DNA from: Nitrospiraceae bacterium
GTDB taxonomy: Bacteria; Nitrospirota; Nitrospiria; Nitrospirales; Nitrospiraceae
Direction: 5' to 3'
Assembly (NCBI GenBank): GCA_050246315.1
Contig: JBFWWG010000021.1
Coordinates: 1-31,909 of the forward strand
DNA: 31,909 nt
This document shows, piece after piece, positions 3,543-19,935 of this stretch; the stretch's first letter is position 1, and every line of letters starts with the position of its first letter. The notes under the pieces were generated by a model. The model did no database searches. It was not told where the DNA came from and worked only from the letters and a program-made list of their open reading frames with translations. The position numbers were made by a program, and so were the translations under genes.

Positions 3543-4811
3543 ATGCCTCTCGACAATAACTTCCAACATGCAGAGTACAGTAGGGCTGAGCCGAAGGACC
3601 GGGTGATTTACCGGGAACTGACTTCCGACCCGCACCCCGATTCCCCAGCCTGGGCTGATGCCATGGCTAGACAGGGGACAGAACTGGCTCGAGGGGGAGT
3701 GCGACTGGTCGTGCTGCTGCACGGCTCCCTCCTGGGTGCCGATCTGTTCGGCATGCAGCGGCTCGATGAAGCCGGTGGCCTCAAGCGCGGCTATTCTCGA
3801 GGCATTGCCGGGTTGGACGCCCTGCTGTCACAGATGAGAGAAGCCACCAACGGCCTGGCCGGTCCCCCCGGCTGGCCCCACCCGCCCTATCGGAACGACG
3901 CCGTGACGAAAACGATGCTCGACGAGACCTTGGCGGACGCCGGAAATGTCACGGAGCGAGGCCTGCAACTCTTTCGCAAGGGGATCAACCGGGAGCTCTC
4001 CAAGCCGATCGTCTGCGAACGGTACCTCTGGTCCTGCGAGCACCATCACTTGGGACGAGCGCAGGCGGCCTGTCGCTTGCTCGATGATCTGCACCGGTGG
4101 ACTGACGACCTTCAACTCGGGCCCGGCGATCGCCTGCTGGTCCACGCCCACGGGCAGGCCGGCCTCCTGCTCGCCCTGGCATCGAATCTCCTCGCTCCGG
4201 AGAGGCTGTCCGGTTACCTACGTTTCTTCGCGATCCAGAAAGAGGTGGCAAGACAGAATCTGTCCGGTACGGTCACGGTCGAGCTGCTGGAATCGCTGGA
4301 CCGGCGTCTGCGCGAACGCACGATCTTCAACGGGGCGACGCTCGACTTGGTGACATTCGGCACACCGGTGCGGTATGGCTGGGACCCCGCCGGCGTCGGT
4401 AAGATCCTCCATATCGTGAACCAACGCATGCTCCGGATCGACGGCAAGGCGTGGCTCGCAAAAGCAGAACTGCCACAGATCACCATGGAATTGCCCATCG
4501 CCTGGGGCGGAGACTATGTCCAGCAACTGGCCGTCGCCGGAACGGATGCCAAGCCCGCGTCATCCGAAGCTCAGGCGGCCAACAAGGCGCTCTGGGAGTT
4601 TCTGGAGCCCTGGGATGGATTCGAACGGTGGCTGGAGTGCGTCCGCCGATCCGTGCGCTGTCAAAACGACGGGCTCTGCATGCTGGTGGATTACAAAGAT
4701 TCGACGGGCTCGACCCAGCCCCGCGACCACTACTATGGCCACGCCGCCTACTCCCGTCAGAACGCGATGCTCTTCAACATATCGGAGATCGCTCGGGCGC
4801 TCTACACCTGA
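3543..4811 (+). CDS. Alpha/beta-hydrolase-fold hypothetical protein lacking the nucleophile Ser
   Basis: VVLLHGS (oxyanion strand), LLVHAHGQAG in place of GHSxGG, LVTFGTPV (lipase-like), C-terminal GHAAY. Confidence 0.65.
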   Translation: MPLDNNFQHAEYSRAEPKDRVIYRELTSDPHPDSPAWADAMARQGTELARGGVRLVVLLHGSLLGADLFGMQRLDEAGGLKRGYSRGIAGLDALLSQMREATNGLAGPPGWPHPPYRNDAVTKTMLDETLADAGNVTERGLQLFRKGINRELSKPIVCERYLWSCEHHHLGRAQAACRLLDDLHRWTDDLQLGPGDRLLVHAHGQAGLLLALASNLLAPERLSGYLRFFAIQKEVARQNLSGTVTVELLESLDRRLRERTIFNGATLDLVTFGTPVRYGWDPAGVGKILHIVNQRMLRIDGKAWLAKAELPQITMELPIAWGGDYVQQLAVAGTDAKPASSEAQAANKALWEFLEPWDGFERWLECVRRSVRCQNDGLCMLVDYKDSTGSTQPRDHYYGHAAYSRQNAMLFNISEIARALYT

Positions 4812-10849: not shown

Positions 10850-11284
10850 ATGTCCGGCATCACCCGTCCAGCCAAGCCCCGCTTCGTGATTTTTGCGCAC
10901 AACGCGACGTACGACAAGCTGCATCAAGTGGCGACGTTGGGTCTGACGGCCGCCGCCATGGGCCAGGAGGTCCTGGTCATCCTCTTGTTCTGGACGATCA
11001 AGAAACTGGCCGACGGTCGATTGGACGAGGTGGATTTTCCGCCCGAGTATGCGTCGGCGGGCGATGAGGTGCGGCGACTGCTGAAGGAAAAGAAAGTGCC
11101 GACGATCTCAGAGATGTTTCAGGAGGCGAAAGCGGTGGGATCGTTGAAACTGATTGCCTGCAGCGCCGGGCTGGAATATATGGGGGTCGATGCGGCGCGC
11201 GTCGAGAAGAACGTCGATGAGGTCATGGGACTGCCCTCGATTCTCTCTCTCACCGCCCACGCGGAAACGAAGCTGTTCATTTAG
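10850..11284 (+). CDS. DsrE/DsrF/DrsH-like family protein
   Basis: TAAAMGQEVLVILLFW, LKLIACSAGLEYMG, C-terminal LFI. Confidence 0.88.
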   Translation: MSGITRPAKPRFVIFAHNATYDKLHQVATLGLTAAAMGQEVLVILLFWTIKKLADGRLDEVDFPPEYASAGDEVRRLLKEKKVPTISEMFQEAKAVGSLKLIACSAGLEYMGVDAARVEKNVDEVMGLPSILSLTAHAETKLFI

Positions 11285-11327
11285 ACTATCAGACTCCTCA
11301 AAAGCCGCAGAGTCTAGGCTGCTGTAA

Positions 11328-11348
11328 TGTGGGGACTTAACACCCACA
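11328..11348. repeat. REP-like short hairpin at the left edge of the island
   Basis: tgtggg-gacttaaca-cccaca stem-loop. The gggacttaacaccc core resembles REP sequences found near RAYT genes (from recall, unverified). Confidence 0.35.
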
Positions 11349-11593
11349 GACTCAGAGAAATCGCCCCACGCTTGGTTCCGCATCCTATGACTTCAAAATG
11401 CTGTCTCTGGAAGATTGGGTACACTCCTTCAACGGAGACAGTGGGACCAATTTCGACCCATAGTGGCGGCGATCGGCATGGAAGCGATACGGAATGACGT
11501 GCACCTCGGCGGCAGTTGACAACGCTTGCGAACCGGAGGAGACTACGCCCCGTAGTTGCGGCGCCATCCCGAAGGTCAGGCAGAGGAGGTGGA

Positions 11594-12861
11594 ATGCCCA
11601 TCATCTACGTTCACGGCGTTGCGACGCGTGATCCCAATAGTTCCTTTGCCGAAATCAAGCAGTACCTACGTCGCTTCGTGGCGCCAGTGATCTCCGCCAA
11701 GCAGGAAGATGTTTTCATCGACCAGTCGTTCTGGGGTGACGCGGGGGCGCACTTCGCCTGGAACGGCGCGTCGCGTCCGCGATCGCTGCTGCTTGGTCAA
11801 GGCGCTGCCCCCCCCCTTCCGCGTCCGAGCGAGCATCGCTGGCCGCTGCGCTGCGCGCGTCGCTCGCGCAAGTCCCTGCCGCGCCGCCGGCTGCGCGCCC
11901 GTCCGGCCTAGTAAGCGGCCATGCGGGAGCGACCGCCGCTGAGACAGGCGCGTCCCTGCGATTGAAGGACCTGTCGACCGACGAGCTAAGCGATCTGCTT
12001 GCCGACCTCATCGCAGCGTCCGTCGATGATGCCGGCGTTCGCGCTCAAGCAACCCTTGCCGCCGACAGGCTGGCCCACGACGTCGACTTTCTCTCTAGCC
12101 TCGCCGCCGCTCCGGACTTGACGACCGAATGCGATGTCCTGGTCGCGCGACTGCGGGCGGAGGTGCCCTCAGCCGGACTCATTGGCATGGGCGGCGTGGC
12201 AGACTGGTTCCAAAACGTCGGCGATCGCGTTGGTGAGGCGATGAGCCGCGCCGTGAGCATCCCAGGCGTAGCCGCCTCCGCGGTGGCCGGAGAGTTTCGC
12301 AAAGGCTTAAACGAATTCGTCTCGATTTTCTTGGGCGACGTCTTCGCGTATCTGAACGAGCGATTCGATAGGGACAAGGCAAGTCCGGGCGAGATCCAGC
12401 GGCGCTTTCTCGACAAGCTCGATGAAGCCCAAAGGAGTCGCGCGCAGCGCGGCGACGAGCCGATAGTCGTGCTCAGCCACAGCATGGGCGGACAGATTGT
12501 CTACGACGCGATCACATACTTCGTCCCGCGTGATCGGCGCTTCGACAAGCTGCGGATCGATTTGTGGTGCGCGACCGCGAGCCAGGTGGGTTTCTTCGAG
12601 GAACAAAAGCTCTTCATCGAGAGCAAGGATGTCTATAAACCCGGGAATCCAGTCCCATTTCCTTCAGGCCACCTGACCGCGTGGTGGAACGTGTGGGACT
12701 ACAACGACTTCATCAGCTTCACCGCCAAGGACATCGTCGCCGGCGTCGACGATGGTCCCTACAACAGCGGCATGTCGCTGATCGGCGCGCATTCCGGTTA
12801 TCTGCAGCGGCCGAGCTTCTACCGCAAGCTCGCGGACAAAGTCCGCGCGGCTATCGCGTAG
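11594..12861 (+). pseudogene. Alpha/beta-hydrolase (lipase-like) split by a frameshift at a C9 tract; about 422 aa if repaired
   Basis: RBS aggaggt, ATG 11594, then MPIIYVHGV and FWGDAG. After C9 (11808-11816) the shifted frame reads without stops (SASERASLAAALRAS...SLRLKDLS) into ORF 11962-12861, which has FLGDVFAYL, VVLSHSMGG, WWNVWDYNDFIS and AHSGYL (Ser-Asp-His triad). Confidence 0.85.
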
Positions 12862-12872
12862 CGGGAGCTGCC

Positions 12873-14936
12873 ATGGGTCTTGCAGTAGATCAGAACACGC
12901 CCGGGCTTTGGATCGGCGACCAGTGGCGGGAAGGAACGTCCGGCTTGTTCGCAGTAGTCGTCGGCGTGAGCGGCTATGACCATCTCGACGGTGGCGATTC
13001 ACCAGCGCCCGAAACTTATGGCCTCGGGCAGCTCAGCGTCTCCGCGCTCACCGCCTATCGAATGTTCGAATGGCTGAGTGACGCTTACACGCTGGAAGGC
13101 TGCCCGGTGGCGCACGTGTGGATGCTGCTTGCGCCCACGCAGAAGGAGAAGGCGTTCGAGCCTGCGCTCGAACATCACCGCCTGGCGCCCACGATCGACA
13201 ACTGCGAACACGCTATCGGCCAATGGCAGGCGGCGATGCAGGCGTTGCCGCAGGGCGCCGCCGAGGGGAGCAGGGCGCTCTTTTTCTTCAGCGGCCACGG
13301 CCTCGAGGTCCACCAGAATCGGCAGATCCTGCTGCCAGCAGACTACCTGAGTCCGCCCGCGCGCAACCTGAACAACGCGCTGTCGACCGAGAACCTGATC
13401 AACGGGCTCGCTTCGCTGAAAGTGACGCGCCAGTTCTTTTTCCTCGACGCCTGTCGCAACGACAATCAGAAGCTGCGAGAGAAGCTTATCCAAGGCCGCA
13501 AGGTCTTGAACGAAGACGTTTCCGCGCTGGTCAATCCCGACGTCATCGCTCCGATCCTGTACGCGACGGCGTCGGGGCAACAGGCCTTTCAGCAGCCCGA
13601 GCCGCATGCCGGGCTGTCGCTGTTCGGAACGGCGCTGCTCGACGGCCTCGCCGGCAAGCCCGATATCGAGCTGAAGCGCACTAACGGGCACTGGTCGGTG
13701 AACGTCTATCCGCTGCAGGGTTACGTCAAGTCGCGCATCATCAAGCTGCTCGAGCAGGCGAAGGAGCGCGTGCGGCAGCCTGTGAAGCTCGGCGGCACCT
13801 CGGACAACGAGATCGTCACGCTTGTGCCTAAACCGAGACGCGCGGTTGTGATATCCCCGACTGCCCCGCCGCTTTCGGTGCAGCGCGCAATGCGGGTCGA
13901 GAAGGCGCTCGGCGCGACGTTTTCGGTCAGCCGCAAGCCGCCCAAACGAGCTCAAGCTGGCGGTTGGTCGCAGGACGACGAGGTCGGGCACAAAGCCTTC
14001 GGGTCCGAGTCCGCAACCGGGCTTTGGGGCAACTTGCGCCTGATCGCCCTTACCAGCGGCGTCGAAAAGGGCGCCGGTGAGGTGGTCCTGCACCAGGTAT
14101 CGCGCGCCAAGGACACGCGTCGCTTCCAGGTAGAGATCAGCCCAATTGGCAGCGACCCGCTCGGGCATTGGCTGGAATTATTCGACAGCAAGTGCCGATT
14201 TGGCGCGCTGCTGCCGTCGGACAGATCCGAGACGCTGCGGTATATCGTCGAGTTCGATCTGGAATTTCGTGAGGAGGACCCGGACGCGGTGCGTCGCATT
14301 TCCAGACTCCAGGTAACGCTTTCCCCGACGTTGAGCGGCTCAGCCGGGATCGCCGCCAAGTTATGGGAGACCTACAACGCGTCGGACGCGGGCACCGCTA
14401 CGCAAGTGATTCAAGACCAGAAGCTCGCCGAGCGCCTCCTGGCGAAGAAGATCGAGTCGCCGCTCGCCGCGGCGATCGCTTCATTAGTGCTGTTGCGCGC
14501 GAATCGGCTCGACCTCCTGCACGACTGGGTGAGAAACGTCGCGAACTGGTTCCCGCATCTTCCGGACGGCGCTACGCTATGGGCGGAGCAGACGCTGCGG
14601 CAGTCCAAAAAGGCCGATGCCATCCGCGAAGCCGCGGCCTACACGAGCCAACTCACCGGCCGGGGGTTGCCGCTGATGACGGAAACCGTTGCCTACGCGG
14701 CGCGCCATCTCGAACTGCTCGTCCAACGTACCGACGTGCTCGATGCGGATCTGCTTGGACGGCTGGCGCACTTGCGGGAGCGAATGGCGCAGGTGCTTGT
14801 CTACTTCAGGACCGACGGTCTATTCTCCGTCTTCACCGGCTACGACGAGAGATCACAAGTACTAGAGCCGCTTGGACTCGGCGCAATTCGCCTCGGGACA
14901 ACGCCATCGATCTCAAGTTACGAGGCTTCGCCATAG
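12873..14936 (+). CDS. Caspase-like (peptidase C14) protease with an unrecognised C-terminal domain, 687 aa
   Basis: FAVVVGVSGY, FFFSGHG (catalytic His), FFLDACR (catalytic Cys), LYATASGQQAF, SLFGTALLDGL. ATG lies 11 nt after the hydrolase stop, with ggag upstream. Confidence 0.92.
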   Translation: MGLAVDQNTPGLWIGDQWREGTSGLFAVVVGVSGYDHLDGGDSPAPETYGLGQLSVSALTAYRMFEWLSDAYTLEGCPVAHVWMLLAPTQKEKAFEPALEHHRLAPTIDNCEHAIGQWQAAMQALPQGAAEGSRALFFFSGHGLEVHQNRQILLPADYLSPPARNLNNALSTENLINGLASLKVTRQFFFLDACRNDNQKLREKLIQGRKVLNEDVSALVNPDVIAPILYATASGQQAFQQPEPHAGLSLFGTALLDGLAGKPDIELKRTNGHWSVNVYPLQGYVKSRIIKLLEQAKERVRQPVKLGGTSDNEIVTLVPKPRRAVVISPTAPPLSVQRAMRVEKALGATFSVSRKPPKRAQAGGWSQDDEVGHKAFGSESATGLWGNLRLIALTSGVEKGAGEVVLHQVSRAKDTRRFQVEISPIGSDPLGHWLELFDSKCRFGALLPSDRSETLRYIVEFDLEFREEDPDAVRRISRLQVTLSPTLSGSAGIAAKLWETYNASDAGTATQVIQDQKLAERLLAKKIESPLAAAIASLVLLRANRLDLLHDWVRNVANWFPHLPDGATLWAEQTLRQSKKADAIREAAAYTSQLTGRGLPLMTETVAYAARHLELLVQRTDVLDADLLGRLAHLRERMAQVLVYFRTDGLFSVFTGYDERSQVLEPLGLGAIRLGTTPSISSYEASP

Positions 14937-14966
14937 CCTACAGCTCACCCTCGAAGGGCGATCTGC

Positions 14967-15069
14967 TACAGCCTTCCTGAAATCGGTCGGGCATTGGCTT
15001 GCACTACTCGACGATCAGTCGCATCGTGAATCCCCAGAAAAGTGACGGTGCAGACAACAAGATCCCCCC
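14967..15069 (+). pseudogene. Remnant of the C-terminal HTH of a RAYT-like (Y1 HUH) transposase
   Basis: Translates YSLPEIGRAL, then after a 1-nt slip GLHYSTISRIVNPQKSDGADNKI, ending aagatcccccc. This fits the Y.L.EIG..LGLHYSTVSR tail and aagacctgacccc end of such elements (from recall). Confidence 0.55.
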
Positions 15070-15093
15070 ATCACCACTATTTCAGAAAGCACT

Positions 15094-16374
15094 ATGATCC
15101 AACAGCACTTTGTGGAGCCCGAACTCGATAATGCGCGAGCGTGGCTGCGCAGCGAACAACGAAAGATCGCAAATACAGAGCATCAGAGCTCAAATGCGCA
15201 AGTCATAACCGATGCTGCCCTACAGGCGCTCGAGGAGTTGACTCGATTTACTCCCACGGAGGTGCCTGATCTGGTGCGTCGAGGTGTGTTCAGGTATAAA
15301 CGGGAGTGCGAAGCTGCCAGAATCGCACGAGCTCAGGCTATTATTCGTCGTGTCGCGCCCGGCCCGTTCGAGGACCCGATCTACTTCGCAACACTCGCGT
15401 ATCAAGCGGCCTCAGTTGAAATGGCATGTGAACTTCTGTCTCAGAAACCGACTTCGCTAGACTACTTTTCAAAGTTTCTGCTCGGAACTCTCCCCCTTTC
15501 AGAGGTCAACGCCTTCGCGACAAAAATAACGAAGAACAGCTACACTATCGTAATACTTCACACCGCGCTAATAGATTTTATCTACCAAGCGGCCAAAGCT
15601 ATTGTCGAGGCCTTGAATCCATCGCGCTCGGTCGATGGTCGGAGTGCCGTTAATGCGGTGTTCGACCTCGATGTGATTCGGTCGAGGCTAGATTCGGATC
15701 GTCGACCAGCGGAACGTCTTTATCGAACGCTGGAAGCCTACTTCTTCGCTGGCTACCCACGCGCATCGGCGGGTGAGATGATTCCAGAGGAGCACTATCC
15801 GCCGCTGAGCCTCATAGTGGCGATGGCGGAACGCTGGGTCATCGGTCATGAGTACGGACACGGCCTGGCACCTTGGTTTGAGCGAGTGCACGTACCAGCG
15901 ACCGTTAACGTCGATTGGGCTGAAGAGTATTTCTCGGATTCTATCGCCACAATTGCCACAGTCTATTCAGCGGCCAAGCTTGATTCCCTACCTCCTGAAT
16001 TCCCTCTTGGCGGCGCAATCTTCGCATTGGCCTGTTTCGACCTGCTCCAGAAGGGTTTCCATATTTTGCTGAATGGTGAGGAGACAAGGTCAGACCCTGA
16101 GCGAGGGACGCATCCTGAACCTAGCGACCGCGCAGTCGAGGTCATCAACTGTTTCCGACAGTACTTTGACGTGAACTACTACCCGAACGGAGAGTTTGAT
16201 CTTACGTTTACTCTCAGAGAAGAAGTCCCCAAGACGCACAATTTTTCCAGCGAGCACAGTAAGCGAGCTTACGCGTATACCAGCCTGCTTCAGACTCTTT
16301 GGAGGCCTGTCAGGGAACGGCTCCTCGATGAGTTTCATAACAATCGTCCACTTCATCCACTTTGGCGTAGTTAG
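15094..16374 (+). CDS. HExxH zinc metallopeptidase, Lit (U49)/M48-like
   Basis: VNAFA, WVIGHEYGH, EEYFSDSIA (third-ligand helix), GTHPEPSDRA. No signal peptide. Codon usage is visibly more AT-rich than the flanking genes. Confidence 0.75.
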   Translation: MIQQHFVEPELDNARAWLRSEQRKIANTEHQSSNAQVITDAALQALEELTRFTPTEVPDLVRRGVFRYKRECEAARIARAQAIIRRVAPGPFEDPIYFATLAYQAASVEMACELLSQKPTSLDYFSKFLLGTLPLSEVNAFATKITKNSYTIVILHTALIDFIYQAAKAIVEALNPSRSVDGRSAVNAVFDLDVIRSRLDSDRRPAERLYRTLEAYFFAGYPRASAGEMIPEEHYPPLSLIVAMAERWVIGHEYGHGLAPWFERVHVPATVNVDWAEEYFSDSIATIATVYSAAKLDSLPPEFPLGGAIFALACFDLLQKGFHILLNGEETRSDPERGTHPEPSDRAVEVINCFRQYFDVNYYPNGEFDLTFTLREEVPKTHNFSSEHSKRAYAYTSLLQTLWRPVRERLLDEFHNNRPLHPLWRS

Positions 16375-16432
16375 AAGTCAGCCTCTCCTCGTCCATTCCC
16401 CCCACCTCGTCTTCTCATAACACGGTTCGGAT

Positions 16433-17092
16433 TCATCGCGATCTCGTCACGCCCACTCGATCGCAATAGGTCGCGACACGGCAGCGGCTGCACCAGGGCG
16501 AGACCGGTTGGCAGACATGCTGGCCGAAAGGCACGAGCAGATCGTTATAGGTGATCCAATAGCGTTTGGGCAGTTTGGCGCGCAGCGCCGCCTCCGATGC
16601 TTCAGGAGTCTTGGTTTTGATGTAGCCCCAACGGTTGCTGATGCGATGGACGTGGATGTCCACACAGATTCCCGCCTTCCGGTAGCCCACCGTGACGACC
16701 AGATTCGCCGTTTTTCTCCCCACGCCCGGCAGGGTCAGCAACTCGTCGATGTCGTCCGGCACCGTCCCTTCGTACCGATCGAGCAGCGCGCGGCTGATAC
16801 CCAGCAGTTGTTTGGATTTGTTACGGTAGAATCCGACGGGGTAGATGGCTCGTTCGATGCGCGCCGGCGTCAGCTGCAACATCGTGGCCGGCGTGTCGGC
16901 GAGCGCGAAGAGCCGCGCGCTGGCCTGAGCCGTCGTGAGATCCTTCGTGCGGAGACTCAGAACCGTTGCGATCAGGATACGAAAGGGGTCCTGCGAGGAG
17001 GCCTTCGCCACCACTCCGACCACCGGATCGGGCCATTGACGGATCTCTCGCCGCAGCGTGCGCAGCACCGGATGAATGTCTGCGTCACGCAT
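16433..17092 (-). CDS. nth: Endonuclease III
   Basis: PFRILIATVLSLRTKD, HhH LPGVGRKTANLV, VDIHVHRI, and Fe-S motif CQPVSPWCSRCRVATYC. Confidence 0.96.
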   Translation of the reverse strand: MRDADIHPVLRTLRREIRQWPDPVVGVVAKASSQDPFRILIATVLSLRTKDLTTAQASARLFALADTPATMLQLTPARIERAIYPVGFYRNKSKQLLGISRALLDRYEGTVPDDIDELLTLPGVGRKTANLVVTVGYRKAGICVDIHVHRISNRWGYIKTKTPEASEAALRAKLPKRYWITYNDLLVPFGQHVCQPVSPWCSRCRVATYCDRVGVTRSR

Positions 17093-17449: not shown

Positions 17450-18973
17450 TCACAGCCCCCCAGACCCCTCAAGGCAACTTTCCAATAGTTTCAACTCATG
17501 CAGAATTTTATCCTTAACCATATGATTTACTTGACGTTTACAGTTCTCATGGACGACCGACCGGAGTCCCAGGAATGAGGCGCGAGCCAGCTCGCGTGCG
17601 ACGAGCACGTCCGGACCCAGCGAAGTATCGCGGCCAGAATCCACGTCCGGCAGGAGGCGCCAAACCTCGACGACCAATCCGGCCAGCGCCAATGGGATCT
17701 GAGTCGCCTCTTCAAGGGCCTTCGAAAATGAACCCGCCTCCTGTGGATCCTTCTTCAATCGGCGCGCCGATTCCAACACCCTGGCGTAAGCCGGGGCATC
17801 GCGCTGCGCAAGCTCCCATAACCCGTTTCCAAGCTTGGTCAGGCGAAGCGCCGAAGCGAGTGGACCTTCCGCTCGTTTTCCCTGGAGAGCCAACACCTTC
17901 GCGCCGAGTTGAGCCGCAAGCGATCCAGCCAAGCCGGCGGCCAGCGCGCCGGCCTTCAGATTGCCGGGCTGTCCAAGCGCGTGTAACAAATCCACGACGC
18001 TGCCGGACGCAGGTTCAGGTCGCTGCTCACGCTCCGGGGCGGCTGCTGGCAGCGGCTTATCGCGGCTGAGCGCCTGTTCCACTTGGATCTCCAGAATCTG
18101 GTCTCCAGAAATGACCGGTAATCCAAGTGCCTCTTGCACCGTTACGAATACGGCCTGGAGCGGAACCAGTCCGATCAATTCCGATCCTGCCAGCCGGACA
18201 CCGGCCTGAGCCGCTTCCCGAGCGACGGCCGCATAAGCCTGATGCAGAGACGTGCGATCAAGATCCGTCAAATTCATCGACACCTGGACAAGCCCGCGGC
18301 TAGCCAGTCGCACACCAATGGCCTTCACGCAGGGCAGTCCGCCGCCGGATTCTCTGACGCGCCGCGCGATGGCTTTGGCTATCGATAGATCCTCGCTTGC
18401 CACGTTCACATTGAAGGCGACAAGAAACGGCCTGGCCCCGATCACCGTGGCGCCGGCCGTCGGATGGAGCTTCGGCGGTCCATAGTCGGGATGCCAGACT
18501 GGGTCCTCCGCCATCCGCTTCGCCAGTGCCTCCAGGCCGCCCCGCCTGATCGCTTCAAGACGACGCCGGACCGACTGCCTGGCCGATTGCTCATACGAAA
18601 ACACGGGAATGCCAAGTTCCTCTCCGATGCGACGTGCGACGCGGTTCGCCAGCTCCACACAGTCGGCCATGGTCATTCCTCGAACCGGCACGAAGGGCAC
18701 CACATCGGTGGCCCCAATTCGAGGGTGCACACCTTGATGCCGGCGCAGATCGATCAGCCCGGTCGCGATTCGACACAATTGAAAGGCCGCTTCGGCCACA
18801 GCGTCGGGCGGCCCGGCCAGCGTCAACACGGACCGGTGATGATCCGGGTCGCTCGTGCAGGCGAGGAGGGCCACCTGCGGGATGGCCTGTACCGCCTCCG
18901 TCAGCGCTTGCACCACCGCGAGATCCCTCCCCTCGCTGAAGTTCGGCACACATTCGACAATGCGATCTGCCAT
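17450..18973 (-). CDS. ftcD: Glutamate formimidoyltransferase with a divergent cyclodeaminase-like C-terminal domain
   Basis: IVECVPNFSEGRD, DPDHHRSVLT, HQGVHPRIGATDVVPFVP, GARPFLVAFNVN, VQVSMNLTD, SELIGLVP; helical C-terminal domain. ATG at 18973 has a GGAGA RBS. Confidence 0.92.
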   Translation of the reverse strand: MADRIVECVPNFSEGRDLAVVQALTEAVQAIPQVALLACTSDPDHHRSVLTLAGPPDAVAEAAFQLCRIATGLIDLRRHQGVHPRIGATDVVPFVPVRGMTMADCVELANRVARRIGEELGIPVFSYEQSARQSVRRRLEAIRRGGLEALAKRMAEDPVWHPDYGPPKLHPTAGATVIGARPFLVAFNVNVASEDLSIAKAIARRVRESGGGLPCVKAIGVRLASRGLVQVSMNLTDLDRTSLHQAYAAVAREAAQAGVRLAGSELIGLVPLQAVFVTVQEALGLPVISGDQILEIQVEQALSRDKPLPAAAPEREQRPEPASGSVVDLLHALGQPGNLKAGALAAGLAGSLAAQLGAKVLALQGKRAEGPLASALRLTKLGNGLWELAQRDAPAYARVLESARRLKKDPQEAGSFSKALEEATQIPLALAGLVVEVWRLLPDVDSGRDTSLGPDVLVARELARASFLGLRSVVHENCKRQVNHMVKDKILHELKLLESCLEGSGGL

Positions 18974-19077
18974 GGGTTCTCCACACTCGATGCTCATTCT
19001 GCCTCATCGAAGGTTGGACCAATGCACGGAATATGCGAACGGGAGAAACACCGGCGGGAGAAAGGAGGGATACGGAC

Positions 19078-19323
19078 TTACTTCGTTTTCTTCACATAGG
19101 CTCTATAAACACGCTTGGCCTGCTGCTCCTCTTCCTCCAGCCCCATCATCTGGTGGCCGGTCGTCTGGCACCAGGCCGGCATGTCTTTCTTGATACCCTC
19201 GTCGTCGGATAACACCTCCAGAACCTGTCCCATGGACAGCTCCTTGATTTTCTTCGAGGTCATGATGATCGGCATCGGGCAGAAGTACCCGAGCGTATCC
19301 AGCTTCACATCGGCTTGCATCAT
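19078..19323 (-). CDS. tusA: Sulfur carrier protein, TusA family
   Basis: LDTLGYFCPMPII (CPxP motif), GQVLEVLSDD, DMPAWC. Confidence 0.93.
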   Translation of the reverse strand: MMQADVKLDTLGYFCPMPIIMTSKKIKELSMGQVLEVLSDDEGIKKDMPAWCQTTGHQMMGLEEEEQQAKRVYRAYVKKTK

Positions 19324-19404
19324 ACGACTCCATCGGGGTGAGATTCAGACTGCAGCTCAGGGTCCCGTTCTCTCAACGTCGGCCCCAGCCGTAACCCCGC
19401 ACGC

Positions 19405-19935
19405 TCAGATGAATAGATTCACCGCACCCTGCCGCGCCTCATTCAAATAGGTGCTCACGCCGGCCAACTGATCAACCCCGTCGATCAGCGTATCTTTCGA
19501 GATCCCCATCAGGCCCATCGTCGTGGTGCAGGCGATAAATCGAACGTCCAGGTCCTTGGCGGTCTGCATCAACTCCGGGATGCCGGGCATCCGATTGTCC
19601 CTCATGACCTTCTGCATCATGCGCGCTCCCATCCCCCCGAAATTGAAACGAGACAGCGGTAATTGATGAGCGCCGCCCTTGTTCAACCAGCCGAACATCC
19701 GGCGGAGCAGATCCTTGGCGGTCGTCGAAGCACCCGGTTTGCGGATCGCGTTCAGGCCCCAAAAGGTGAAAAACATCGTCACCGGCATCCCCATCGCCGC
19801 CGCGCCGGTGGCGATGATGAACGCCGCCATGACACGGTCCATGTCTCCGCTCAGCACCACAATGGTGACGCGCTCCGGCTTCGTTTCCTGTAGGTCGGCT
19901 AAGGCCGCCGACGGCTCAACCTGCGTGAGATTCAT
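19405..19935 (-). CDS. DsrE2-like (DsrE/DsrF/DrsH) sulfur-relay protein
   Basis: SGDMDRVMAAFIIATGAAAMG, MFFTFWGL, LSRFNFGGMG, FIACTTTMGLMG, C-terminal LFI. Confidence 0.92.
   Translation of the reverse strand: MNLTQVEPSAALADLQETKPERVTIVVLSGDMDRVMAAFIIATGAAAMGMPVTMFFTFWGLNAIRKPGASTTAKDLLRRMFGWLNKGGAHQLPLSRFNFGGMGARMMQKVMRDNRMPGIPELMQTAKDLDVRFIACTTTMGLMGISKDTLIDGVDQLAGVSTYLNEARQGAVNLFI

Follow-up and report, generated by a model that had tools for sequence, protein, structure and literature searches.

Does a caspase-like protease encoded directly after an alpha/beta-hydrolase in a Nitrospiraceae bacterium serve to release its neighbour from latency and, if so, where would it cut and to what end? 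The original prediction for this part of the window (the whole stretch of 31,909 nt that was analysed) had the hydrolase as a zymogen and the protease as its activator. Gene adjacency, homology to the published LcHydrolase-LcCaspase module, twin motifs confined to hydrolases paired with a caspase, and co-variation of the P1 residue with a residue of the protease's pocket together give that reading good support. We consider it likely that the pair is a mobile two-gene protease-effector module forming a Gln/Met-cleaving sister clade of the alpha/beta-hydrolase-caspase system. The overall logic of such modules is already published; what the locus adds is that a generic guess gives way to exact predictions, namely where the two cuts fall, how large the three fragments are and which single residue sets the specificity, and that the uncharacterised Y4kD_C domain gains a context.

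The insert and its genes

The pair lies, as first described, within an insert between convergent genes, and the insert (Table 1) holds three genes: hydrolase, caspase and a metallopeptidase that the earlier account had not included. Relatives have 17-20 bp at the position of the 5.1 kb. Five were tested for an empty site: in four (G001, G002, G004 and G014) the flanking genes are adjacent, G002, whose sequence was inspected, at 98-99% identity, and the fifth (G003) gave no match at all. Contigs joining 11280 to 16393 are present in two of four metagenome runs (X1 and X15). The caspase was matched in two of the 41 genomes searched, the window's own and one other from the same order (G032), where the hydrolase again precedes the caspase and a gene of its own encodes the C-terminal domain. 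With empty sites in close kin and no caspase match in three same-genus and 24 same-family genomes, the pair does not belong to the core genome. Elsewhere in the genome neither a repeat of the insert nor a further close caspase or hydrolase copy was found; a promoter and terminator scan of the locus came out at chance level, and Rfam gave no match. The runs containing the locus are wastewater and sludge metagenomes, and the genes present have a Nitrospira-like appearance. Contigs from RNA runs span parts of all three insert genes at a low depth that is not a measure of expression.

Table 1. Features of the insert, its flanks and its gene products (hydrolase residues numbered as in the in-frame protein P0387)
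Feature	Position	Strand	Remarks
DsrE-like gene	10850-11284	+	insert flank
Accessory insert, 5.1 kb	11284..16392	.	between DsrE-like gene and HhH-GPD glycosylase gene
Alpha/beta-hydrolase gene, predicted zymogen	11594-12861	+	ATG 11594; frameshifted in this genome
Predicted cut site 1, Q69-G70	11798..11803	+	aligns with R73-G74 of Lc-type family
Predicted inhibitory middle segment, residues 70-198, 129 aa	11801..12189	+	helical bundle between two low-confidence loops
C9 homopolymer at frameshift	11808..11816	+	proteins P0387 and P0121 imply C7 and C8 alleles
Predicted cut site 2, M198-G199	12187..12192	+	aligns with Lc-type site 2, [RK]-G; register uncertain by one Gly
Ser296 (HSMGG), nucleophile	12481..12483	+	invariant in 117 homologues
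Asp371, putative catalytic	12706..12708	+	invariant in 117 homologues
His399, putative catalytic	12790..12792	+	invariant in 117 homologues
Caspase-like C14 protease	12873-14936	+	687 aa; intact; catalytic domain about residues 1-320
Gln240, predicted S1-pocket residue	13590..13592	+	MALT1 Glu500 position; co-varies with hydrolase P1
Y4kD_C domain (PF27295)	13905..14867	+	beta-sheet part plus TPR-like helices about residues 487-643
HExxH metallopeptidase gene, Lit/U49-like, 53% GC	15094-16374	+	426 aa; third insert gene
HhH-GPD glycosylase gene	16433-17092	-	insert flank, convergent with DsrE-like gene

In its in-frame allele the hydrolase has 421 aa; homologues run to about 410-440 aa, with close ones intact at about 422 aa. 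The predicted fold is that of an alpha/beta-hydrolase (AlphaFold model, pLDDT 89) with a helical bundle at residues 76-189, and from this fold and the invariance of the three residues, S296, D371 and H399 would make up the catalytic triad. Of the intact triad originally described the residues stand and the gene does not, on account of the C9 frameshift. Closest by fold are a lipase (Z 15.4), the DDHD domain of Nir2 (Z 14.1, rmsd 4.1, 219 aligned), which is about level with other hydrolases, and lysosomal PLA2 (Z 13.8). DDHD is not among 25 of the 27 Pfam families listed for the 117 members, and 55 of the 117 have weak LCAT matches. From its fold neighbours our guess, by a small margin, is that the enzyme is a phospholipase or lipase; the substrate of the hydrolase family is given as unknown in the sections of PMC12642450 covered. 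The family comprises 562 clusters at 50% identity (E up to 1e-30), and neither PADLOC nor NCBIfam names the hydrolase or the module. Inspection, and that only, agrees with the earlier statement that neither protein has a signal peptide.

The protease has a Pfam C14 match (E 4e-8) and a His142 (SGHG, 13296) and Cys194 (DACR, 13452) that are invariant in 65 homologues, and it starts 11 nt after the hydrolase stop (12861 to ATG 12873); coordinates, Pfam and invariance all bear out the description of a C14 protease at that distance with an intact His-Cys dyad. The whole model is confident (pLDDT 92, pTM 0.92). Its best structural match is MALT1 (Z 20.9, rmsd 3.0 over 220 residues), also the sole hit, at E 1.5, of a sequence search against solved structures, and the NCBIfam model for EACC1-type caspases gave 22 bits against a cut-off of 140. 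The TPR-like helices of Y4kD_C match at Z about 10, a value that generic repeats also reach. In pNGR234a and at other loci the domain has a gene of its own; it is a plausible candidate for a sensor or regulator. In vitro, LcCaspase needed no trigger to cut its substrate, according to the portions of PMC12642450 covered, which by analogy would argue against treating gating by a sensor domain as established. Fusions of caspase to bDLD1 in P0046 and of hydrolase to CHAT in P0291 give further links to death domains and clan-CD proteases; for P0291 a hydrolase-caspase (Y4kD) fusion was rejected. A complex prediction of caspase residues 1-322 with the hydrolase scored 0.01 against a mark of 0.32 and is used neither for nor against an interaction.

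Do the two genes stay together elsewhere, as was proposed for checking? They do. Of 153 hydrolase loci confirmed in GTDB genomes the best 80 were taken, and 51 of the 80 have a same-strand caspase, 50 of these starting between -30 and +25 nt from the hydrolase stop and one being in a shared ORF, and the C-terminal domain is also present in 50 of the 51. (The single hydrolase-caspase ORF of L036 may be a frameshift artefact.) The paired loci span Proteobacteria, Acidobacteria, Bacteroidota, Planctomycetes, Actinobacteria, Cyanobacteria and others. The 29 loci scored without a caspase, of which at least two (L033 and L061) end too near the hydrolase gene to score, are mostly from Obscuribacterales and Intrasporangiaceae. 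Since the linkage is conserved, chance adjacency is excluded: the pair is a conserved, mobile and tightly linked module. The metallopeptidase was rejected as its fixed partner, being beside none of the other stored loci; it reaches an Atlas score of 0.97, with TM 0.58-0.69, to clusters in which 31-49% of members have PF10463, without itself giving a direct Pfam match.

Predicted cut sites and the pocket that would read them

LcCaspase cuts LcHydrolase at R73-G and R117-G, and the N-terminal and C-terminal pieces together kill Escherichia coli (Evans 2025, PMC12642450, in the parts covered). For comparison an Lc-type set was assembled by motif pattern, comprising 59 loci and 41 full-length proteins, with L155, close to Lc by eye, as a proxy for the Lc protein, which was itself compared by eye only. 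The hydrolase matched the 41-protein family in hhalign with probability 97-99% (E 1e-11 to 4e-16) and the caspase matched its counterpart with probability 98% (E 5e-14). Q69-G70 here and R73-G74 there are each 22 residues past a [WY]GD conserved in both families; the N-terminal profile match that fixes this register is weak (probability 18%, E 3e-4). Within the Lc-type set itself the distance from the YGD glycine on to [RK]G is 22 residues in 29 of 41 proteins and 20-21 in five, [RK]G being missing in seven, and site 2 is Arg or Lys in 35 of 41. Both sites predicted for the window's hydrolase are in low-pLDDT loops around the helical insert of the AlphaFold model. We infer from homology and co-variation that the caspase would cut at Q69-G70 and M198-G199, which predicts fragments of 7.6, 12.7 and 24.9 kDa.

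The motif scored for, a hydrophobic residue, any residue, then Gln or Met before Gly, was sought in full-length loci, with broken or shortened ones and L033 left out. At site 1 it is present in 32 of 36 scorable paired hydrolases versus two of 23 orphans; for site 2 the counts are 39 of 46 and none of 24. No caspase-less orphan among the 24 has both. The orphans represent few lineages, and Fisher values for these counts overstate independence. Short orphan hydrolases are without most of the middle segment, and such insert-less relatives may be constitutively active enzymes, which would suit them for tracing the substrate of the family.

A set of 86 pairs was available for asking which residues go together: 49 genome loci, two plasmids, the window, and 34 joined only by equal size of contigs, one of which duplicates L007. 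P1' at site 1 is Gly in 85 of the 86, and G70 and G200 are each at least 90% conserved. P1 there is Gln or Met in 76 and Lys in three. Because its P1 is not Arg/Lys, the window's pair is placed outside the narrow LcHydrolase R-G clade.

What in the protease might account for this? The S1 pocket of MALT1 has Asp365, Asp462 and Glu500, and the same loop carries Gln494 and Ala498 (PMC4357240, in the parts covered). By the motif spacing G-x-x-A-x-E, Gln240 would be the counterpart of Glu500. Position 240 is Glu in 18 of 21 Lc-type Arg/Lys caspases, the other three being unparsed; in the window's clade 52 of 65 have Gln. By motif spacing two of the three acidic MALT1 residues, Asp365 and Glu500, appear here as Thr60 and Gln240, which predicts a non-basic P1; the change of Asp to Thr60 was rejected as the cause of the shift, as Lc-type caspases are also without that Asp. 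Among the 86 pairs Glu240 is found in three, and these are exactly the three with Lys-Gly at site 1, one of them a size-joined pair; a random match of three Glu to three such pairs has a chance of 1 in 102,340. In a FastTree tree they are scattered, their common ancestors taking in 74-76 tips. Both His-Gly cases at site 1 carry Ser at the pocket position, and there is one exception, L076, with Arg-Gly at site 1 and Gln240.

The hydrolase-caspase branch to which the window belongs accordingly seems, as far as sequence can tell, to differ from the known kind in P1, with Gln/Met instead of Arg/Lys. The clan-CD proteases described so far cleave chiefly after Asp, Arg/Lys or Asn, and a caspase that prefers Gln/Met and has a natural switch of one residue would therefore be of value for evolution and as an orthogonal protease. 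The literature covered on the module, on Y4kD and on a DDHD link, with most subscription papers outside its scope, describes no Gln/Met-cleaving clade; the neighbourhood figure of Evans 2025 may already include it.

As a course of events, the hydrolase would be made as an inactive 45-kDa zymogen, and the caspase, which its Y4kD_C/TPR-like domain may gate in response to some phage or stress cue, would cut it at both sites. The 12.7-kDa middle bundle would then drop out, leaving the 7.6- and 24.9-kDa pieces as an active serine hydrolase, most likely a phospholipase or lipase, that on the model of its Lc homologue would kill or arrest the cell. In the genome of the window the effector is off through the homopolymer frameshift, with the protease intact.

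A poly-C tract and the output of the module

The frameshift, hinted at in the original prediction only within a proposed assay, is real in the sense that the C9 run breaks the hydrolase frame and leaves a 105-aa product. Is it a switch, or has the locus here begun to decay? The chances of slippage-based switching on the one hand, and of fixed loss with the C7 and C8 forms being sequencing errors on the other, strike us as near even, and decay in this one genome would be compatible with the mechanism proposed for the family. All four metagenome runs, from four studies, show C9 and no indel, which speaks for a fixed state; an assembly error is not supported by these runs, though three of the four may be the assembly's own source DNA. 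The shortened product, of 299 aa, of the C9 form is on 24 contigs versus one contig for each other allele, and in X1 and X15 a strain with the empty site has greater depth than the one that bears the insert. Against decay, the caspase is intact with its invariant residues kept, and one public contig encodes the in-frame 421-aa protein P0387, exactly reproduced by C7 and otherwise letter-identical to the window's hydrolase; P0121, also on one contig, is reproduced by C8. Runs of C or G of at least 9 are moreover rare, with only seven in the 4.39-Mb genome. The homologue at L004 has no C run at the corresponding position. Two alternative starts were considered: an internal start at M198, giving an active C-terminal fragment uncut, was rejected on inspection for want of a normally spaced ribosome-binding site and with P1 often being Gln, and for rescue by re-initiation at TTG 11962 there is no evidence.

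An anti-phage role for the pair is plausible. The defence-island part of the original proposal fared less well than the adjacency part: in a PADLOC scan that used crude ORF calls and a 4-kb window and took in 30 of the 51 paired loci and 15 of the 29 unpaired ones, six of the 30 and one of the 15 had matches (p 0.40; with cysteine desulfurase counted, two of 15, p 0.70), so that the defence neighbours, which include CBASS, DUF262-like (Orf5/HEC-06), mad2, mad3, LeoA-like and CapH/CapP, are suggestive and not significant. Might the proteolytic switch instead serve to remodel lipids upon stress, to signal, or to run an addiction-like selfish module carried by mobile DNA? We regard such a non-anti-phage output as improbable, though the lack of enrichment suits it, as do several plasmid copies among IS elements and integrases and the persistence of orphan hydrolases in conserved, housekeeping-looking neighbourhoods, so that the enzyme is not obligatorily lethal. 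Stress roles were also raised for related modules by Evans et al. (PMC12642450), which in the parts covered reports no phage plating for the Lc module. Weighing the other way are the killing of E. coli by cleaved LcHydrolase, a patchy spread over many phyla with empty sites in close kin and co-insertion with a Lit-like peptidase, and the cases beside CBASS, a DUF262-like gene, qatA or CapH/CapP. (Among eight plasmid regions opened out of 15 hits one is near qatA and one beside an ATPase and S8 peptidase pair.)

That the two proteins are merely co-transcribed partners sharing another target, the twin motifs being structural or binding elements of an uncut hydrolase, is very improbable: an insert and C-terminal domain unlike those of the Lc system leave it some room, set against motifs that match proven Lc cut sites in position and vanish in orphans, and a P1 residue that tracks the pocket residue three separate times.

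Returning to the proteolytically activated effector, a more daring synthesis can be entertained, which we think unlikely to hold in full. An undescribed, widespread caspase clade would cut after Gln/Met under a one-residue code (pocket Gln with Gln/Met-Gly; Glu with Lys-Gly, having arisen anew three times or more; perhaps Ser with His/Ala) and would license a membrane-destroying phospholipase zymogen by way of a TPR-like Y4kD_C sensor, with slippage of the poly-C just past cut site 1 turning the effector ON and OFF, in short a phase-variable suicide defence. A search of the literature on phase-variable defence found nothing on this module.

Comparison with known systems

On sequence comparison the window's clade is a distant sister of the LcHydrolase-LcCaspase zymogen module of Lysobacter capsici AZ78. 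Shared are the homologous domains, the gene adjacency, two motifs with Gly at P1' at equivalent positions, and a nucleophile and Asp/His motifs that align. The differences are several: P1 is Gln/Met here and Arg/Lys there, with pocket Gln here versus Glu; the middle piece has 129 aa versus 44 aa, in proteins of 421 and 296 aa; and the order is hydrolase-caspase, whereas 24 of 25 Lc-type loci have the caspase upstream. Here the protease ends in Y4kD_C, whose comparison with the Lc-type one gave no significant match (E 0.3), homology of the two being set aside accordingly, and identity between the clades is about 21%.

An adjacent alpha/beta-hydrolase gene always accompanies the caspase in VMAP ternary systems as described by Kaur et al. 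2020 (PMC7159879, in the parts covered); the MoxR, vWA and VMAP genes of those systems are absent from the insert, which has a stand-alone two-gene form. At the y4kD locus of Sinorhizobium fredii pNGR234a, on which no functional paper was found in the literature searched, hydrolase, caspase and Y4kD_C follow in the same order, with caspase and Y4kD_C as separate genes there and fused here. MALT1 paracaspase and the metacaspases share the protease's fold, and the Asp before the catalytic Cys is kept here. Finally, bacterial gasdermin and EACC1 systems with a caspase-like protease have in common with the pair that a protease releases an adjacent latent effector; the effector predicted here would be an enzyme needing two cuts, not a pore.

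Tract length, broken pairs and hydrolases without a protease

The poly-C tract of the frameshifted hydrolase gene (11808-11816) is one of seven C or G runs of at least 9 nt in the genome, and C7, C8 and C9 alleles of it can be inferred from public assemblies, the last being the window's own form. At three further pairs (L015, L038, L062) the hydrolase is broken into several ORFs, and at each of them the reading frame is interrupted within the middle segment, the predicted inhibitory piece between two predicted cut sites; since the caspases of L015 and L038 are broken too, decay or assembly error is the likely cause.

Among the orphans, hydrolase loci lacking a caspase partner (L040, L044-L049, L052, L054-L057, L063-L083), those of Obscuribacterales encode long proteins devoid of cut motifs, while those of Intrasporangiaceae or Pseudanabaena encode proteins of about 300 aa with most of the middle segment absent. 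Neighbourhoods are stable in both, and the orphans are possibly domesticated, constitutively active enzymes.

Other genes of the window

The product of the ORF at 3543 drew no match in a Pfam search, and appears to be another protein of the alpha/beta-hydrolase fold, in which the nucleophile position is not Ser. The third gene of the insert could be a second abortive-infection gene, independent of the pair. A 98-bp stretch (14965-15062) of the spacer that separates it from the caspase gene has two matches, at 75% identity, in a relative lacking the insert (G001), no further copy being found in the window's own genome.

Features of the window and of plasmid variants
Feature	Position	Strand	Remark
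422-aa ORF	3543-4811	+	HG and H-A-H-G-Q-A-G motifs
Sulfur-relay genes (two DsrE-like, TusA); fused formiminotransferase-cyclodeaminase	10850-11284, 19078-19935, 17450-18997		Around insertion site
HExxH metallopeptidase, Lit/U49-like	15094-16374	+	53% GC; same insert as pair
Plasmid variant, second caspase	L096:11343-12899		Convergent with pair
Plasmid variant, y4k form	L094:4737-9547		Three genes; adjoins RES gene
Plasmid variant, four-gene form	L095:5548-12131

Variant architectures

Proteins P0046 and P0114, which join a caspase to the Y4kD_C domain, bear an extra C-terminal domain, either a bacterial Death-like domain (bDLD1; P0046) or DHHA2. Elsewhere a CHAT protease is fused to a related hydrolase (P0291) or flanks one (L158:3261-8208): another clan-CD protease has recruited the same effector.
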